DNA of 15,336 nucleotides. Source: a virus. The position numbers and the translations under genes were made by a program. The notes below the pieces were generated by a model. The model had not been told where the DNA came from and did not search any database. It was given only the letters and a program-made list of their open reading frames with translations. This document shows, in pieces, positions 1-5,272 of this stretch (its first letter is position 1; each line of letters opens with the position of its first letter). The stretch lies in the UHGV virus genome UHGV-1739098; one strand, given 5' to 3'.

Positions 1-278
1 CCATTCCCGGCAAGGTTAGGAACAACATCCTGCTGCTTTAATGCTGCGGTAAACACACACTTCCAGCTTTCTGCATCCAGCCAGCGACCATGCCATTCAA
101 CCTGACGAGAGACGTCACCAAGGCAAGCCCAAAGCTTTCGATTCTGGTCTAAGCTGCGGTTGCGTTCCTGAATGGTTACTACGATTGGTTTGGTTGGGTC
201 TGGAAGGATTTGCTGTACTGCGTGAATAGCGTTTTGCTGATGTGCCGGAGATCGAATTTCAAAGGTCAGTTTTTTCAT
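1..278 (-). CDS. ninB: NinB recombination protein, N-terminal part; the gene runs off the left edge of the window
   Basis: Reverse-complement translation from ATG at 278-276 gives MKKLTFEIRSPAHQQNAIHAVQQILPDPTKPIVVTIQERNRSLDQNRKLWACLGDVSRQVEWHGRWLDAESWKCVFTAALKQQDVVPNLAGNG with no stop to position 1. This matches my recollection of the lambda NinB N-terminus. It is absent from the ORF track because it is truncated. Confidence 0.8.
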   Translation of the reverse strand, partial: MKKLTFEIRSPAHQQNAIHAVQQILPDPTKPIVVTIQERNRSLDQNRKLWACLGDVSRQVEWHGRWLDAESWKCVFTAALKQQDVVPNLAGN

Positions 279-471
279 GACTTCCCTCTCTAACAGATTT
301 CAGGTTATTCCACTCCGTTACCGCACTGCGATAATTCGCGGCCGCCACAGCAGCGTGGTTAGCGCAGTAGATTTGGCACCCGTTCTCCATGTCGAATATT
401 GTCGGTGATTTTCCGCATTTACATTTTTTGGCACGCGGTGCGTCTGAACACATTCCGTTAACGGTGTCCAT
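259..471 (-). CDS. Hypothetical Cys-rich 70-aa protein between the helicase gene and ninB (the position ren occupies in lambda)
   Basis: ORF-track ORF with a GAGGGGGA Shine-Dalgarno a few nt upstream of the ATG. It has Cys clusters (CKCG, CQIYC). Its 3-prime end overlaps the ninB start by about 20 nt. Confidence 0.5.
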   Translation of the reverse strand: MDTVNGMCSDAPRAKKCKCGKSPTIFDMENGCQIYCANHAAVAAANYRSAVTEWNNLKSVREGSHEKTDL

Positions 472-555: not shown

Positions 556-1992
556 TCAGAATCCTCCTTTCTTCTTGGACTGCGGTTCCTCGCGTTCACG
601 TCGGCGCATTTCAGCAGACTGTTGGTCTGTGTCATAAATAGCGCCATTTGCCTGAATGCAATACACCGTGCCGGTATTGCCATGACGATTGAGACGAAGG
701 ATTAGTTCGGTTTCACCAGGAGGAACGCTGTCATCAAAAGCACCTTCCCGATGGATCCCAACCCAATAATCGCAATCCTGTTCAATCTGCCCTGTATCTC
801 GTGAGTCACTTGGTAATGGGCGTTTATTGGTTCTGCTTTCCAGTGCGCGGTTAAGCTGCGTCAGAAGCACAACAACGCAATCAAGCTCTTTGGCAAGGTT
901 CTTCAGTCCTTTGGTGATCATGCCGTAAGCAAGGTCGTTGCGATCGGCCTTCTCAGCGGTCATTAGTGTCAGGTAATCGACCAGAATCATGCCAACACAT
1001 CCTTTTTCTCGCTTGATTCGACGGCTTTCGCTAACGATTTGAGCCAGAGATAATCCCGGCGTGTCGTCGATGTAAAGCAGGTCGATTTCACTCAAACGAT
1101 TAGCTGTTTCGATCGCCCTGTTGAAGTCACCATCGTAATCACCCTGATAGCCGTCATCAGCGTCATTTGTCGCCGGAAGGTAAAAAATATTCGGGTTAAC
1201 ACCAGACTTCTGCCCTACCAGTTTTTCCAGTATCTGATCACCTGGCATTTCAAGGCTGAACATCAGAGCGGGCTTTTTCTCATGCACTGCGCAGTTGATT
1301 GCCATCTGGCTGTATAGCGTCGTTTTCCCCATCTTAGGGCGAGCGCCAATGACAAACAGAGAGCCTTTCACCAGACCTTTCGGTGACAGCATCCTGTCCA
1401 GCGATGGGATCCCTGTGCTCATTCCTCGTTGTTCGCCTGACGGGTCAAATCGCTTCTCAAGGTCGCTAACCCAGCCTTCCATGACCTCACCAAATGAACG
1501 AAGGCCGCGACGCGATCCGGTTTTTGCATGGTCTGTCAGTTGCGTGAAAATCGACTGAATAGCTTCGTACTTCTGTGTTGCAGTCATTCCGTTGCGGGAA
1601 TAGAGCAATTCCGTCGCTTCAGTCATGCGGTTGATGGCGTAGCGTTCCATTGCGGTTTCACGAACCTGCATTGCATAGGCAACGATGTTTGCGGCGCTTG
1701 GCGTGTTCTTTGCGATCTCAGCGATATAAGCAAAACCGCCAACAGACGCCGTTAACGATTTACGCTCCAGTTCATCGAAAAGCGTCAGGCCATCTACTGG
1801 CTTTTGCTCCCGGTGCATTCTGGTTATTTCTTCGAAAATGATTTTGTGTGGTCGGCTGTAAAATGAATCAGGCTTCAGCATCGCCAGAACTTTCTGGACG
1901 CGCTCACTGCTGTCATCATCCAGAAGCAATCCACCAATCACCGCCTGCTCTGCCTCGATGCTATGGGGCGGCGCATAAAAATTATCGGTCAT
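556..1992 (-). CDS. DnaB-family replicative DNA helicase (P22 gene 12-like)
   Basis: DnaB N-terminal signature HSIEAEQAVIGGLLLD and Walker A motif GARPKMGKTT. The ORF track starts at a GTG at 2007; the ATG at 1992 preceded by GAGGG is the more likely start. Confidence 0.9.
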   Translation of the reverse strand: MTDNFYAPPHSIEAEQAVIGGLLLDDDSSERVQKVLAMLKPDSFYSRPHKIIFEEITRMHREQKPVDGLTLFDELERKSLTASVGGFAYIAEIAKNTPSAANIVAYAMQVRETAMERYAINRMTEATELLYSRNGMTATQKYEAIQSIFTQLTDHAKTGSRRGLRSFGEVMEGWVSDLEKRFDPSGEQRGMSTGIPSLDRMLSPKGLVKGSLFVIGARPKMGKTTLYSQMAINCAVHEKKPALMFSLEMPGDQILEKLVGQKSGVNPNIFYLPATNDADDGYQGDYDGDFNRAIETANRLSEIDLLYIDDTPGLSLAQIVSESRRIKREKGCVGMILVDYLTLMTAEKADRNDLAYGMITKGLKNLAKELDCVVVLLTQLNRALESRTNKRPLPSDSRDTGQIEQDCDYWVGIHREGAFDDSVPPGETELILRLNRHGNTGTVYCIQANGAIYDTDQQSAEMRRREREEPQSKKKGGF

Positions 1993-2881
1993 CGTGTTCA
2001 CCCTCACGAACTTTCAGGTAGGTATTATCGTTAAGCAGGAAATCAAATCCCTTTTTGTGCCAGACGGTTCCGCGCTGATGGTTTGGGCGCTCTTCGAACA
2101 TCCATCGGCAATTTTCGCCTACGTAGCTCAAATAATTTCTCCAGTCCTGCATCGTGAACCCATGCCCGTCAAGCTGGCGGGTTATCACTCCGGCTTTGCG
2201 CCAGAACGTTCGGATCTGGTTTTTACGCTTGTCATTCAGTGCGCGGATTCTTGGCGCTTCAGGAAGGATTTCGTGGTAAGCATCGACAACATCCTGACAG
2301 CTGACGGGAGGTTTTTTCTTGTCAGACTTTTTGTCTGCTGTGGCACTCTCTAATACGTCAGTATTAGAGATAATATTATTATATTCTTTATCTGTGGTAA
2401 TTTGCTGGTAATCTGCTGGTACAGTATTGCTTACAGGCATTGGTATTGCTGGCTTTGAGGTGGTAATTTGCTGGTAATCTGCTGGTACAAAATTTGACTG
2501 ATAATCGTCATATTTCTCTACCGAGAAAACTGAGAATTTACCGTGTGAAACCCAGTCAATCATGCCGAGTTTTTTGAACTTTCTAAGCAGGTACTGAACG
2601 CGATCTGGTTTGAGTCCTGTTTCAAACGCCAGAGAGTTTCTACCGCCAAGTAGCTTCCCTCTGCCTACCAGAATTTCTCCTGCGTCAGTCATTACATACT
2701 CAGGCGTATGCTTTGCTTTGAGGATTAAGTGAACCCACAGATGCGATGCTTCTGCGTCCTTGTAAAACGGCACATCCATAATTTTACGGTGCAGCAAGGC
2801 ATACCCCTTACCGCTGCTTTGATGCGGTTGTTGTAGCCTTCTGGCCTCTCTGGCTTCGGCTAGATTAGATATGTTACTCAT
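1982..2881 (-). CDS. Replication initiation protein (lambda O / P22 gene 18-like) carrying the ori iterons
   Basis: Sits immediately upstream of, and overlaps, the helicase gene. AAGGAG Shine-Dalgarno. An internal exact 29-bp direct repeat gives a protein-level repeat [10 protein letters not shown], and an AT-rich tract lies next to it, which is the lambdoid ori layout. Confidence 0.75.
2395..2489. repeat. Putative origin of replication: iteron array inside the initiator gene
   Basis: tggtaatttgctggtaatctgctggtaca occurs exactly twice (2395-2423 and 2461-2489). Each copy holds sub-repeats TGGTAAT(t/c)TGC. An AT-rich tract (taatattattatattctttatc, about 2370-2393) is adjacent. Confidence 0.6.
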
Positions 2882-3020
2882 GACCTTTCTCCTTCTGCAT
2901 CAGCTTCACTTTTTCCAACTCAGCCCGGAATCGACCAGGCTGCTTGAAGCTGGACAGGAAGCGATCACGTAGTATGTTTTTGTGCATTTTGTCCTGGTAA
3001 GGACTGAGTGGTTTTGTCAT
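2874..3020 (-). CDS. Hypothetical 48-aa protein, translationally coupled between the 134-aa ORF and the initiator gene
   Basis: Its ATG (3020-3018) overlaps the TAA of the upstream ORF as TAATG. Translation [48 protein letters not shown]. Its 3-prime end overlaps the initiator start. Not in the ORF track (under 60 aa). Confidence 0.4.
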
Positions 3021-3424
3021 TAAGCCTCCTCTACTTCGTAATCAGCGAAGTAACCGGTAGACATTTTTAAAAACCTTGATTCGGTGACTGTGTAAGCCTT
3101 CCTGCCTTTCCTCTCCTTGCCTTCAGGCTCTATGAGGTGGCACGAATAAATGATTCTGCGCTGCCAGTTGCCTGGCATTTCCACCACTGCCAGAACCTCA
3201 AGAATTCTCTTTCCTTCAGCATCAGCGGTGTAAAAACACTGATCACCATAACCACAATCGGCTGGCTCATAATTTTTGTGACAACCGCCAATCCAGCGCT
3301 CATCGGTATCCACGTTGCCGTCATAAGACTGATAATCTGTGCATACTAAGATAAATGGATATACGGTTTCGAACTTGTCACCGGCCTTTATGCCGGTGTT
3401 TACTTGCTTGGTTTGTCCTGGCAT
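3020..3424 (-). CDS. Hypothetical 134-aa protein inserted between cII and the replication genes
   Basis: ORF-track ORF with a strong AGGAG Shine-Dalgarno. Cys/His-containing ([16 protein letters not shown]). No family recognised. Confidence 0.6.
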
Positions 3425-3456
3425 AATTACTCCTGTGGATTGATCCAGTAATTCCC

Positions 3457-3753
3457 TCAGAATTGCATATCAATTTGCTTAAAATCCTCGGTGGCGGCCG
3501 GGTATTTTTTCTTTGTGATTTCATCAAGCGCATACTTAAAAGCCCTACTAATCGGACTGATGTCTGATGCCATTCCGAAAGCACACAAGACCGAAGCAAT
3601 AAATCTCCAGTCCGTTCTGCTTATCTTCGATTCATGACAGCCAATCATCTTTGCCAGACCGCGCTGGGTAAGCGTTGACAGGTTGATGAGTAAATCAGTT
3701 TCAGCGCGATCAATTTCTCGCTGTGTTGGCTTGCTGTAACTTGCTTGTGTCAT
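3457..3753 (-). CDS. cII: CII-like transcriptional activator
   Basis: 98 aa. The C-terminal KKKYPAATEDFKQIDMQF resembles lambda CII KKRPAATERSEQIQMEF. Lies immediately downstream of cro, as in lambda. A TTGC-N6-TTGC motif sits in its first codons on the opposite strand. Confidence 0.75.
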   Translation of the reverse strand: MTQASYSKPTQREIDRAETDLLINLSTLTQRGLAKMIGCHESKISRTDWRFIASVLCAFGMASDISPISRAFKYALDEITKKKYPAATEDFKQIDMQF

Positions 3754-3763
3754 TTCTTAATAT
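3731..3763 (+). promoter_or_regulatory. Candidate pRE (CII-activated promoter for repressor establishment)
   Basis: TTGC-tgtaac-TTGC at 3731-3744 is the CII recognition pattern TTGC-N6-TTGC. TAATAT follows at 3758-3763. It lies within and antisense to the 5-prime end of cII and points toward cro and cI, as lambda pRE does. Confidence 0.5.
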
Positions 3764-3791
3764 TTCCAATAGTGAATAGTTAGTTGAAAGG

Positions 3792-3809
3792 TATGCGTGG
3801 AAACGCATA
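3792..3809 (-). terminator. Hairpin between nutR and cII (tR1-like position)
   Basis: 7-bp perfect stem tatgcgt/acgcata with a 4-nt loop. On the minus strand it is followed by CCUUUC, which is only weakly U-rich, so it may be Rho-dependent or a structural element. Confidence 0.3.
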
Positions 3810-3891: not shown

Positions 3892-4137
3892 TTATGCTGC
3901 CTGATTCGGTTTTGGAAACAGGTGTGGCAAATCGGGGCGAATTTCGTAAGCCTTGATCTGCCCTCCAGTGGCGTTAACGATGGCGGTAACTTTCTCTGGA
4001 GAGACCAACCCGCCTTTCAGCCATTTGTGTACTGCTGGCTGCGTTACACCACACTTGTCGGCAAGGCGCTTTTGGCTACCGACAATTTTCAAGGCTCGTT
4101 GAATTACTAAATTCATGAGCATACCTCTTGTGGTCAT
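3892..4137 (-). CDS. cro: Cro-like HTH repressor (YdaS/DUF1019-like)
   Basis: HTH segment KRLADKCGVTQPAVHKWL and a C-terminal TGGQIKAYEIRPDL motif typical of YdaS-type Cro proteins. Divergent from cI across the operator region. The true start is probably the ATG at 4116 (M-N-L-V-I), 9 nt after AAGAGG. Confidence 0.75.
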   Translation of the reverse strand: MTTRGMLMNLVIQRALKIVGSQKRLADKCGVTQPAVHKWLKGGLVSPEKVTAIVNATGGQIKAYEIRPDLPHLFPKPNQAA

Positions 4138-4149
4138 TAGTTATAACCA

Positions 4150-4215
4150 AAGATAACTCAAGTTATAAAAAATAGCAATAACCTTTGTTATTTTACTTTG
4201 GATAACCGTAGTTAT
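4150..4215. promoter_or_regulatory. OR region: three operators overlapping pR and probably pRM
   Basis: Three 14-bp palindromes ATAAC-N4-GTTAT at 4153-4166, 4178-4191 and 4202-4215, with centres 24-25 bp apart. Minus-strand pR: -35 TTGCTA (4178-4173), 17-bp spacer, -10 TATCTT (4155-4150), overlapping O1 and O2. Confidence 0.6.
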
Positions 4216-4227
4216 AGATTTGTGGGT

Positions 4228-4935
4228 ATGAAAACATTCGCAGAAAGACTAAATGCAGCCATGAGCTCAGCAGGGGTATCACAATCACAGCTTGCTGACA
4301 TGGTTGGAATATCTCAGCCAGCCATACAGAAGATGTCGTCCGGTAAAACAAACGGATCTCGCAAGATGGTTGAATTAGCCAATGCTTTAAAAGTGCGTCC
4401 TGAATGGCTTAGTTCTGGTATTGGTGAAATGAGGGATGGTGCACATGAAGAACCATCCAATGTCCGTGAGTCATCTTTAAAAGCTGTGGTATGGGAAGAC
4501 ATTAAAAGAAACGATGACGAGTTTGTTGCGTTGCCTCTTCTTAACGTTTCGCTTTCAGCTGGAAGCGGTAGCTGCGAGCTAGAGGAATCATCGGAGTTCT
4601 CTTTGGTTTTCAGAAAGCACTATCTGAAAAAGATGGGAGTATCTGAAAGATCAGCCAAGCTAGTTAGGGTTGTAGGGCAAAGCATGGAACCAACCCTTCA
4701 CGATGGCGATGTTGTTGGTGTTAACACGCAAGATACCACAATCAGAGATGGTAAAACCTACGCTATTTGCCAGTCTGATTTGTTACGAGTAAAAACATTA
4801 ATCGCCACCCCTACATCGGTGATAATCAGATCAATAAATCGCGAAGAGTACCCGGATGAAGTAATGGATAGAGATGAATTTCATGAAACCGTAAGGATTA
4901 TTGGCAGAGTATTCTGGTCGTCTCATAGTTGGTAA
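4228..4935 (+). CDS. cI: CI-type repressor with N-terminal HTH and C-terminal S24 (LexA-like) autopeptidase domain
   Basis: HTH region QSQLADMVGISQPAIQKM. S24 motifs VVGQSMEPTLHDGDVV and a later K. The ORF-track start at 4198 is a TTG that sits inside operator O2/O3; the ATG at 4228, just past O3, is more likely. Confidence 0.85.
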   Translation: MKTFAERLNAAMSSAGVSQSQLADMVGISQPAIQKMSSGKTNGSRKMVELANALKVRPEWLSSGIGEMRDGAHEEPSNVRESSLKAVVWEDIKRNDDEFVALPLLNVSLSAGSGSCELEESSEFSLVFRKHYLKKMGVSERSAKLVRVVGQSMEPTLHDGDVVGVNTQDTTIRDGKTYAICQSDLLRVKTLIATPTSVIIRSINREEYPDEVMDRDEFHETVRIIGRVFWSSHSW

Positions 4936-4975: not shown

Positions 4976-5272
4976 ATGGAATTTCTGATAGTTTTTGTTG
5001 TTGTTTTGGTCATCATTCTTTTTGTTTTGCTAAGCATTAGCAAAAAGCTATCTCAAATGATTGAACATAGCTCTAATCGCGCAAAAGAAGAAGAGCATAT
5101 AATTGATATAAAAGAGATTCTCTCTGATATAAAAATCACATTAGATGAAATAAAATACACAACAGATCTAATTGAACAGTATAAAATACCAACCCCAAAC
5201 GAGAGAAAAGCAATAGATCAATATCGTATTGACTTAGAAATCGACGAAATGCTAAGCAAAAGAAAAGACTAA
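4976..5272 (+). CDS. Hypothetical 98-aa membrane protein (N-terminal transmembrane helix plus charged helical tail); moron at the rex-equivalent position
   Basis: GGAGGG Shine-Dalgarno 5 nt before the ATG. N-terminus EFLIVFVVVLVIILFVLLSI. Visibly very AT-rich compared with cI. Followed by a terminator. Confidence 0.6.
   Translation: MEFLIVFVVVLVIILFVLLSISKKLSQMIEHSSNRAKEEEHIIDIKEILSDIKITLDEIKYTTDLIEQYKIPTPNERKAIDQYRIDLEIDEMLSKRKD

Follow-up and report, generated by a model that had tools for sequence, protein, structure and literature searches.

Between the cII-type gene and the replication initiator gene of the virus genome UHGV-1739098, a lambdoid prophage, lie two small open reading frames, here designated ORF134 and ORF48, and the question raised by this locus is which of them is foreign to the early operon of lambdoid phages, and what its product might do. 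The first-pass annotation had described two translationally coupled frames in the rightward early operon, with an AGGAG site ahead of the first, a TAATG coupling between the two and an overlap of the second with the initiator start; all of these are read in the minus-strand sequence of the window (the whole stretch of 15,336 nucleotides analysed). The elements of the locus are the following:

556–2007, minus strand: DnaB-type replicative helicase gene (Pfam DnaB_C, E 2.9e-60; DnaB, E 6.3e-32)
1982–2881, minus strand: O-like replication initiator gene (phrog_345, 'replication initiation O-like', E 7.9e-87; 99% identical to VT2-Sakai O)
2394–2494: origin iterons within the initiator gene, a direct repeat of 94% identity with 35-nt copies at 2394–2428 and 2460–2494
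2874–3020, minus strand: ORF48, a basic protein (pI 10.1) of 48 aa, Pfam DUF2740, equivalent to P22/HK022 orf48 and HK620 hkaW
3020–3424, minus strand: ORF134, an acidic (pI 4.95), beta-rich protein of 15 kDa, family phrog_30464 (HK639 gp53)
3021–3424, minus strand: cassette of 404 nt, from the ATG to the GCTTA of ORF134, absent from Stx and HK022-type phages
3399–3427, plus strand: pO-like promoter from a promoter scan, TTTACT / 17-nt spacer / (TG)CATAAT
3430–3434, minus strand: AGGAG ribosome-binding site of ORF134, five bases ahead of the ATG
3435–3511, plus strand: oop-like antisense RNA over the 3' end of cII, predicted from alignment with the lambda oop region and VT2-Sakai (ends inferred)
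3457–3753, minus strand: cII-type transcriptional activator gene, 98 aa (Pfam Phage_CII, E 7e-33; phrog_191; 95% identical to VT2-Sakai cII)
3892–4137, minus strand: cro-type repressor gene, first in the rightward operon (Pfam YdaS_toxin/HTH_3/P22_Cro, phrog_35)
4198–4935, plus strand: cI-type prophage repressor gene with HTH and S24 peptidase domains (Pfam Peptidase_S24, E 1.6e-17; HTH_3)

Anatomy of the interval and identity of ORF48

The order, overlaps and identities of these elements are in our view very nearly certain. The start region of ORF134 on the minus strand is ACAGGAGTAATTATG, and the frame ends in GCT TAA, of which the final A (3020) doubles as the A of the ORF48 ATG to give TAATG. 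ORF48 in turn ends in ...GGT CAT GAG TAA and has 8 nt (2874–2881), ATG included, in common with the start of the initiator gene, inside which the iterons occupy the positions annotated as 'ori iteron 1/2' in VT2-Sakai.

At the other end of the interval, the region 3435–3511 lines up nucleotide by nucleotide with the oop region of lambda and with VT2-Sakai, and a scan places a terminator-like hairpin at 3487–3502, followed by a T run. The predicted fold of the corresponding RNA has two stem-loops (−23.5 kcal/mol, z −2.66), and Rfam contained no family matching the oop region. From this homology, from a promoter that reads against cII and from an intrinsic terminator in the cII 3' end, a lambda-type oop/pO antisense unit is predicted to be present, resembling that of lambda in its near-identical sequence, its promoter and terminator layout and its overlap with the 3' end of cII. 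The ORF134 ATG, read as its reverse complement, is part of the −10 element of the pO-like promoter, whose −35 element lies in ORF134 codons 7–9. It is in the coding sequence that carries the −35 element that these phages differ, this being the first codons of O in lambda (PMC3349717), those of orf48 in P22 (record BK000583, where the oop promoter is annotated over the first orf48 codons in the same arrangement) and the leader of ORF134 here. The complement of the −35 element, GTAAAC, is found at the same position in nearly all loci in which ORF134 follows a cII-type gene, even where the neighbouring codons differ; three of the most divergent loci have it displaced or altered.

The two frames had been regarded as two extra genes, on the premise that in lambda and P22 the cII-type gene is followed directly by the initiator. 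For P22 this premise fails, as its record BK000583 has orf48, 85% identical to ORF48, between the two. Indeed, the general layout is cII-oop-'orf'-O-P, and it is lambda that has been described as 'naturally missing the orf48 gene' (Hayes et al. 2012, PMC3349717). ORF48 matches Pfam DUF2740 (PF10872) with 102.6 bits against a cut-off of 27 (E 8.6e-30), residues 6–48 covering positions 1–43 of the 43 in the model, and shares about 94% identity with its counterparts in HK022, HK620 and Stx phages. The family is present in 127 phage records, P22, HK022 and HK620 among them, and the exact ORF48 sequence occurs on 330 contigs, where it is labelled 'DUF2740 family protein'. Relatives down to about 45% identity keep the length and an HKN-x-x-RD motif, and the dN/dS of ORF48, computed only on codons free of overlapping signals, is 0.16. 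This match, together with the kept length and motif and the dN/dS value, indicates that ORF48 is not a chance frame. Its position just upstream of the initiator, with the 8-nt overlap, is the layout of P22, VT2-Sakai and Erwinia phage Midgardsormr38. On these comparisons ORF48 is the widespread orf48 of P22 and HK022 in its customary place, and not an extra gene; one extra gene is left, ORF134. Likewise, the statement that no family could be recognised stands in part, since ORF134 has no characterised family (its match being the unannotated phrog_30464) but ORF48 belongs to DUF2740.

With the copies in P22 (orf48), HK022 (orf48), HK620 (hkaW) and VT2-Sakai (H0097), all PF10872, ORF48 shares the 48-aa length and the 8-nt initiator overlap. 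In those phages, however, the gene starts directly at the oop/pO joint and bears the pO −35 element, whereas here it is displaced by 404 nt and reached through the TAATG overlap with ORF134. The PHROG label 'tail protein' given to the DUF2740 family (phrog_1913) was taken as an annotation error, considering its 48 codons, its place in the replication module and the annotation 'unknown' of the P22 copy. A literature search on DUF2740, HK639 and orf48 retrieved no functional study of ORF48 or ORF134; the 'orf48' that appears in accessory-gene screens follows those authors' own numbering and is unrelated to the P22-type gene.

ORF134 as a cassette at the oop/pO joint

Global alignment against VT2-Sakai opens a single clean gap of 404 nt, between ...GGAGTAATT and ATGACAAAAC, and in agreement Megablast matches cover the flanks only, in two pieces amounting to 64% of the query. 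In the pairwise alignment the sequence from the AGGAG site through to the ATG is common to VT2-Sakai, and in Stx phages this site serves orf48. As judged from these alignments, the extra gene is ORF134 alone: compared with Stx phages, exactly 404 nt are inserted at the start codon of orf48. A classical lambdoid 'moron' was considered and rejected, as no promoter-like or terminator-like site was found on the sense strand, the gene is coupled to its neighbours at both ends without any intergenic space and the GC content (0.462) is like that of the neighbouring genes (0.444–0.463; window, 0.457).

Other genes occupy the same slot, namely an HK97-type 53-aa ORF, T5orf172/MUG113 proteins and ParB-HTH proteins. 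They resemble ORF134 in starting at the conserved joint CTGGATCAATYCACAGGAGTAATTATG and in preceding the initiator, but are unrelated to it in sequence and size. ORF134 is by far the rarest occupant, a full copy being found in 1 of 120 sampled viral contigs with the same joint and 5' remnants in 2. At two loci (L130 and L214) the leader of ORF134 is present alone and the rest of the gene absent, and the homologues located in the nin region have no nine-codon leader. A further group of slot proteins, the 'MNEKPILFN' proteins of 191–250 aa, had been guessed to be ASCH proteins; Pfam gave no confirmation.

These observations suggest the following arrangement. The region is the variable 'orf' slot of lambdoid phages, extending from the oop/pO unit at the end of cII to the replication initiator gene, and its usual occupant is orf48, whose 5' end normally bears the pO −35 element and whose 3' end bears the Shine-Dalgarno sequence and start codon of the initiator. 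A 404-nt single-gene cassette would have recombined in exactly at the joint ...CACAGGAGTAATT|ATG, taking over the orf48 ribosome-binding site. Its nine-codon leader would supply the pO −35 element, so that antisense control of cII should be kept, and behind ORF134 orf48 and the initiator gene stay coupled through TAATG and the 8-nt overlap. As the promoter and terminator scan gave no sense-strand promoter-like or terminator-like site for ORF134, its production should depend entirely on the rightward early transcript under repressor control. The protein would then appear upon infection or induction, in roughly the same amounts as the replication proteins.

Conservation and predicted fold of ORF134

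ORF134 matches phrog_30464 over residues 1–134 of 134 (E 1.7e-93), a family that comprises 125 of its 131 relatives and extends to about 190 clusters at 50% identity. Full-length homologues from 26 clusters are 44–97% identical and the motifs GDxF..YPF, W.GG, ADxxG, MPG..QRR.IY, DPxG and GYF..Y can be aligned throughout the family. The gene is rare (2 of 5,426 complete E. coli genomes; 5 of 50,697 phage records). Intact, full-length copies occur at about 80 loci in several genera. The dN/dS over the 134 codons is 0.06–0.09 in comparisons with relatives whose dS is 0.6–2.4. ORF134 is under strong purifying selection and, on account of this and of its full-length homologues, is not a chance frame, so that neither of the two ORFs is one. 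Such selection, together with the low divergence, is unexpected for proteins engaged in a fast arms race and counts against the explanation favoured below. No match was found when the protein and its profiles were compared with Pfam, NCBIfam, PADLOC and the sequences of the PDB; neither ORF134 nor ORF48 matched a PADLOC defence-protein family at E up to 10. All relatives are annotated 'hypothetical', and a single fusion (P0071) joins a DUF3850/ASCH-like domain to an ORF134-like one; as a lone case it was given no weight here.

A close named relative is gp53 of Escherichia phage HK639 (YP_004934083.1, phrog_30464), 90% identical over all 134 residues and likewise encoded immediately after a cII-type gene and its antisense RNA. 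The HK639 locus differs in that the upstream gene is 181 aa long and annotated CII-like (close homologues elsewhere match Pfam YdaT_toxin), an 'M3-like RNA' is annotated in place of oop, and there is no DUF2740 gene ahead of the initiator, which comes next. More generally, the gene upstream of ORF134 relatives is of CII type at 37 of 53 loci and of YdaT type at 11, and the initiators downstream belong to several unrelated families. The replication proteins behind them are distinct as well: HK639 has a P-like helicase loader, E. coli MS 115-1 a toprim-domain protein and Yersinia a DnaC-like (IstB_IS21/Bac_DnaA) protein, against the DnaB helicase of the present locus. At about 50 of roughly 80 loci the gene lies directly before the replication initiator and is translationally coupled to it, which could mean a replication-related role and also counts against the favoured explanation. 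In about 30 Klebsiella-type loci it is found in the nin region, 0.7–2 kb after the replication genes, and a distant member lies within a leftward ERF/YqaJ recombination operon. No conserved partner gene was found among the neighbours of distant members. This occurrence in different early-operon positions, with unrelated initiators, suggests an early accessory protein that is optional and stand-alone, and that would not be tied to one partner.

The AlphaFold2 model of ORF134 is of high confidence (pLDDT 94.2) and, as modelled, the protein has no solved structural relative in the PDB. Small beta-barrels of SH3-like, Tudor and BAH type (the ERCC6-L2 Tudor domain, CarD, the C-terminal Tudor domains of UvrD and PcrA) align with 50–84 of its 134 residues at 4–15% identity, but neither the sequences nor the profiles revealed a relationship, and they have no functional residues in common with it: the likeness is one of fold class, not of family membership. 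In BFVD there is one match, to an unnamed viral protein without annotation (A0A345BR75, E 1e-5, TM 0.64). The N-terminal GDxF..YPF motif also prompted consideration of SH3-barrel toxins of the MazF/PemK/CcdB type, which were rejected since no MazF profile or fold similarity was found.

Across the 131 relatives the invariant or near-invariant positions are P23, G71, F24, W44, G47, P84, R90, P100, G102 and F118, R90 being the sole charged residue among them. The segment from C48 to residue 63, which the first-pass annotation had proposed for metal binding, is present in the translation; the proposal itself finds no backing, as no Cys or His column is conserved across the 131 relatives and no Pfam zinc-finger family is matched. 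Within the close family only C48 is invariant among Cys and His residues, H49 and C63 varying. In the wider set, position 48 is Cys in only 59 relatives, C57 is mostly replaced by D or G, position 95 is R in 85, and C63, H49 and H96 are variable. With R90 as the only charged residue at the invariant or near-invariant positions, and without conserved Cys and His residues, ORF134 is probably neither an enzyme nor a metal protein.

Possible roles of ORF134

The explanation that we favour, comprising anatomy, cassette and function, has as a whole about an even chance of being correct. As to function, we tentatively propose that ORF134 is a compact, soluble, mostly-beta protein with an SH3/Tudor-like barrel, a stoichiometric binder of a host or competitor macromolecule that would serve as an optional early accessory in host takeover or counter-defence, outside the replication machinery. 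The protein would probably be a non-enzymatic binder; it is the position, rarity and mobility of the gene that suggest host takeover or counter-defence. A broader proposal, about which we are somewhat more doubtful, is that phrog_30464 proteins form a class of phage early proteins with a new structure. By binding directly to their target they would disarm a host defence or divert a conserved host process, and their gene would pass between lambdoid genomes as a cassette that is compatible with the promoter at the oop/pO joint.

A different reading would make ORF134 an accessory of the replication module that helps origin firing or recruits or modifies a host replication protein, the coupling to the initiator then reflecting a shared function. 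The about 50 loci that overlap the initiator gene directly downstream (ATGA or TAATG), the location among replication and recombination early genes in all other contexts and a purifying selection fitting a housekeeping-type phage function would all agree with it. We nevertheless consider it unlikely, given that the adjacent initiators are of unrelated families, with different helicases or loaders, that ORF134 is absent from phages such as the Stx phages, whose O and DnaB module is essentially the same, that in the about 30 nin-region loci the gene lies away from the replication genes, and that the acidic character of the protein (pI 4.95) argues against DNA binding. Prophage accessory genes often exclude other phages, and the sporadic, mobile occurrence of ORF134 among prophages would suit a defence or superinfection-exclusion gene expressed from the prophage to the benefit of the lysogen. 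Such a role is rather improbable for a gene that sits inside the repressor-controlled rightward operon without intergenic space and without a promoter or terminator on the sense strand, has a base composition like its neighbours and has no PADLOC match.

We give very little credence to a Cys/His metal-binding (zinc) protein. The enterobacterial subfamily has an invariant C48 and a conservation of 90% or more at C57 and C95, so that a lineage-specific site or disulfide is possible; however, H49 and C63 vary among close relatives, C48, C57, C95 and H96 are not kept across the 131 relatives, and the most distant close-family member (P0026) has neither C57 nor C95, in addition to the missing zinc-finger match. 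Equally improbable is a cassette selected mainly in cis, for the pO −35 element or for the spacing between oop/pO and the origin, with the protein incidental. The −35 element in codons 7–9 is indeed kept in nearly all post-cII loci, the insertion widens the distance from pO to the origin iterons by 404 nt, and a figure in Hayes et al. 2012 (PMC3349717) concerns oop-to-ori spacing and replication inhibition in lambda. Against this, the low dN/dS over the whole 134 codons and the confident compact fold show selection on the protein, which nin-region homologues keep without the leader, and the leader alone is enough for the promoter at L130 and L214. Finally, ORF134 could be a selfish or decaying frame, a homing-element remnant or pseudogene with no phage function, as the slot also hosts T5orf172/GIY-YIG-like genes, four neighbouring long ORFs contain HNH domains and truncated 5' remnants of ORF134 exist; with full-length, intact copies in about 80 loci of several genera at dN/dS below 0.1, and no nuclease domain found in Pfam searches, this is extremely improbable.

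The practical outcome of this analysis is a corrected annotation, in which one of the 'extra' genes becomes the orf48 (DUF2740) that is standard in P22-type replication modules. Variation in the slot from oop to the initiator had already been documented, and the locus leaves the current understanding of lambdoid biology unchallenged. Within this frame, ORF134 would provide a clean example of a single gene recombined at a conserved 27-nt joint, the cassette being compatible with the overlapping antisense promoter because its disordered nine-codon leader encodes the −35 element. With about 190 clusters, a confident predicted fold and strong purifying selection, this unstudied family is a reasonable candidate for phage accessory-gene screens, and as HK639 and E. 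coli MS 115-1 carry the ORF134 gene, genetic tests of its role are possible.

Layout of the early region and its two small ORFs

The region is the immunity and replication part of a lambdoid prophage, and its rightward early operon occupies the minus strand of the window. The following gene order emerges from the ORFs listed for the window and from family scans (Pfam, PHROGs):

4198-4935, plus strand: cI-type repressor (HTH plus S24 peptidase)
3892-4137, minus strand: cro-type gene (YdaS/HTH families)
3457-3753, minus strand: cII (Pfam Phage_CII, E 7e-33)
3020-3424, minus strand: ORF134, the 134-aa ORF (phrog_30464)
2874-3020, minus strand: ORF48, the 48-aa ORF (Pfam DUF2740)
1982-2881, minus strand: O-like initiator (phrog_345, E 7.9e-87)
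556-2007, minus strand: DnaB-type helicase (Pfam DnaB_C, DnaB)

The anatomy described in the first-pass annotation is borne out: an AGGAG box lies 5 bases upstream of the ORF134 ATG, a TAATG junction joins ORF134 to ORF48, the last 8 nt of ORF48 are shared with the initiator start, and residues 48-63 of ORF134 form the Cys/His-containing segment. The O-like gene contains two origin-type 35-nt direct repeats, 94% identical (2394-2428 and 2460-2494), whose counterparts in VT2-Sakai are annotated 'ori iteron 1/2'.

Two further ORFs were observed in the window. A 98-aa ORF (4976-5272, plus strand), directly 3' of the cI-type repressor gene and on the same strand, has an N-terminal transmembrane-like segment (MEFLIVFVVVLVIILFVLLSISKK...) and a GC content of 0.30 (window 0.457). 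Its position is equivalent to that of rexAB in lambda, and it is a candidate for an exclusion or conversion gene expressed by the prophage. Just 3' of the helicase gene, a 70-aa Cys-rich ORF (CKCGKSP...CANH; 259-471, minus strand) matches phrog_6308 (function unknown in PHROGs, E 1.4e-53), with no match in Pfam.

ORF48 and ORF134 had both been read as extra genes of no recognised family, on the premise that in P22 the cII-type gene leads directly to the initiator. ORF48 matches Pfam DUF2740 with 102.6 bits (cut-off 27), and it turned up in 127 phage records by translated search, among them P22 (85% identity), HK022, HK620 and Stx phages (about 94%); the exact protein occurs in 330 contigs as 'DUF2740 family protein', and the VT2-Sakai copy is labelled 'bacteriophage HK022 Orf48'. 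In the curated P22 record the order is c1, the terminator and promoter of oop (in lambda, the RNA antisense to the 3' end of cII), orf48 and gene 18, the oop promoter overlying the first orf48 codons, while Hayes et al. (PMC3349717) describe a general cII-oop-'orf'-O-P layout and a lambda 'naturally missing the orf48 gene'. The P22 premise is thus wrong, and ORF48 is no extra gene, being a long-catalogued lambdoid ORF in its usual place.

ORF48 looks translated, as a very basic protein (pI 10.1). Its relatives, even those of about 45% identity in Klebsiella-type phages, keep a length of 47-49 codons and the motif HKN-x-x-RD, and dN/dS is 0.25-0.35 overall and 0.16 in codons 10-45, which overlap neither the promoter nor the signals (ribosome-binding site, start codon) of the initiator. 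Our literature search found no functional study of ORF48 or DUF2740; one P22 paper reports the region as dispensable for prophage maintenance and says nothing further on it. The label 'tail protein' carried by its PHROG, phrog_1913, and spread to many phage GenBank records is almost certainly an annotation error, since this is a 48-codon gene within a replication module.

ORF134 as a rare occupant of a variable slot

Of the two ORFs it is ORF134 that is inserted. The 2700-3800 segment has hundreds of megablast relatives among phages and 5,426 complete E. coli genomes, every one matching in two pieces and none spanning more than about 65% of the query. Global alignment with VT2-Sakai leaves one 404-nt gap only, collinearity extending up to ...ACAGGAGTAATT and resuming from ATGACAAAAC, the orf48 start, so that the insert comprises exactly the ORF134 coding sequence except for the final stop-codon base. 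In Stx phages orf48 is served by the ribosome-binding site that ORF134 uses here, and the insertion adds 404 bases to the distance between oop with its promoter, pO, and the origin repeats. This precise insertion is also rare: ORF134 occurs in 5 of 50,697 phage records (HK639, in two records, Hafnia phage Meifeng and two Klebsiella phages) and in two of the 5,426 E. coli genomes (CFSAN061770 and MS 115-1), and among 5.8 billion proteins its 90%-identity clusters number 26, the named ones being from Enterobacterales. The exact protein is recorded in E. coli assemblies as 'hypothetical protein', and its gene has the same GC content as its neighbours.

The slot, i.e. the position between oop/pO and the initiator, was surveyed in viral contigs with the conserved joint CTGGATCAATYCACAGGAGTAATTATG, by classifying the first ORF after the joint.

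Slot occupants among the 120 viral contigs listed (proportions of this sample; initiator, ParB-HTH and T5orf172 classes checked in Pfam with one or two representatives each)
Unrelated 53-aa ORF (the ORF length given for HK97 by Hayes et al., PMC3349717): about 34
DUF2740: about 32
None, lambda-O-type initiator directly: about 23
ParB-HTH proteins: about 12
T5orf172/MUG113 proteins: about 7
ORF running off the contig: about 5
Unassigned 191-250-aa proteins: about 3
ORF134 5' remnant: about 2
Full-length ORF134: about 1
Initiator resembling the window's O: about 1

The slot is a known hotspot, documented in the literature, and ORF134, though real, is a hypothetical gene within it that had been catalogued before (HK639 gp53, phrog_30464).

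A predicted antisense promoter across the ORF134 start

Between cII and ORF134 the plus strand aligns nearly base for base with lambda oop, and a consensus scan predicts two elements:

3399-3427, plus strand: pO-like promoter (TTTACT, 17-nt spacer, (TG)CATAAT)
3487-3502, plus strand: terminator hairpin followed by a T run

The predicted 77-nt RNA has two stem-loops (-23.5 kcal/mol, z -2.66); no Rfam model matches the region. Reverse-complemented, the -10 hexamer reads ATTATG and so includes the ORF134 start codon; the -35 hexamer falls in codons 7-9. GTAAAC (Val-Asn) is kept at the -35 position in nearly all of about 30 post-cII ORF134 loci despite differing neighbour codons, being shifted or changed in three divergent ones. 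Residues 1-9 are the sole low-confidence stretch of the structure model, and homologues located elsewhere in the genome are devoid of this nine-residue leader. Two IMG/VR contigs (L130, 2917942753_000002, and L214) retain only the first 27-29 nt of ORF134 (MPGITGYVN) at the oop joint, after which come a Shine-Dalgarno sequence and the initiator ATG; this piece is either what a deletion has left or a pO -35 module standing by itself. In HK639 (L001 2931-2990) the sequence before ORF134 is a different conserved one, cactgtgttacgccaagtaacgggagtaatt, which is not oop-type and is annotated 'M3-like RNA'; it also replaces the oop-type sequence in L005, L008, L015-L018, L022, L025, L028 and L060, and in these loci the CATAAT and TTTACT elements are kept. 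We take the leader to be a promoter module and the cassette to be built so that antisense control of cII would stay intact: a neat case of dual coding.

The ORF134 family and its possible role

An exhaustive profile search retrieved 187 representatives of 50%-identity clusters at E <= 1e-3 (41 at E <= 1e-10), every name given at source being 'hypothetical'. Among 131 aligned members, 125 belong to phrog_30464, a PHROG without annotation. A Pfam scan of the relatives found no domain except in the sole fusion seen in the family, a 280-aa protein (P0071; L086 5001-5843) with an N-terminal DUF3850 (ASCH-like) domain ahead of the ORF134-like one, encoded within an ERF/YqaJ recombination operon of a prophage. 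Selection on ORF134 is strongly purifying (dN/dS 0.06-0.09 vs five relatives with dS 0.6-2.4). The AlphaFold2 model from the 131-sequence alignment (pLDDT 94.2, pTM 0.80) has seven or eight strands and one C-terminal helix; a structure search of BFVD returned one match, an unnamed viral protein, and profile searches of PDB sequences gave none; the modelled fold is apparently unrepresented among solved structures. The N-terminal motif was also considered as MazF-like, a reading that failed when tested. ORF134 itself is acidic (pI 4.95), and so are most family members, although not uniformly.

The positions conserved in the wider family are Gly, Pro and aromatic residues and one Arg, and look like a structural core rather than an active site. 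The Cys/His residues are not conserved across the 131 relatives, and in the close family C48 alone is invariant, which leaves the earlier metal-binding proposal unsupported; a lineage-specific site involving C48, C57 and C95 is conceivable.

The genomic contexts were compared in 81 further loci. In about 50 the ORF134 relative lies between a cII-type gene and an initiator, the upstream gene being Phage_CII in 37 of 53 cases and YdaT_toxin in 11, and the initiators downstream belonging to several unrelated families; DUF2740 intervenes in E. coli-type loci and one other. What replication protein comes next varies: the window has the DnaB helicase, HK639 a P-like helicase loader, MS 115-1 a toprim-domain protein, and a Yersinia locus, where a T5orf172 gene is also inserted, a DnaC-like (IstB_IS21/Bac_DnaA) protein. 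In MS 115-1 (L004, chromosome 3244704-3245254) the ORF134-DUF2740 pair recurs (99% and 96% identity) beside another cII gene and another replication module (a replication protein plus the toprim-domain protein), which indicates that the pair moves as a unit between modules. In some 30 Klebsiella-type loci the homologue sits in the nin region, 0.7-2 kb past the replication genes, and of the distant members one belongs to a leftward ERF/YqaJ recombination operon, one follows DUF1376 and DUF6475 genes and one is found amid helicase and primase genes, with no conserved neighbouring gene in the neighbourhoods compared.

A consensus scan of the sense strand found no promoter or terminator belonging to ORF134, whose transcription would thus depend on the repressor-controlled early rightward promoter alone, with translation probably in step with orf48 and the initiator. 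The main rival reading, a replication helper, is rather unlikely: ORF134 appears to travel independently of any given cII, initiator or helicase, can occur outside the replication module, and is dispensed with by phages carrying a near-identical O and DnaB module. These comparisons argue for an optional accessory protein rather than a replication component. As no catalytic constellation is conserved, the accessory protein most likely acts by binding a target, which might be a host defence, a host housekeeping protein or a competing phage. The observation that opened this analysis is confirmed, and the interpretation given with it holds in part. All of this is in line with what a mosaic lambdoid genome would be expected to show, and the ORF134 family is a fair candidate for functional screens.
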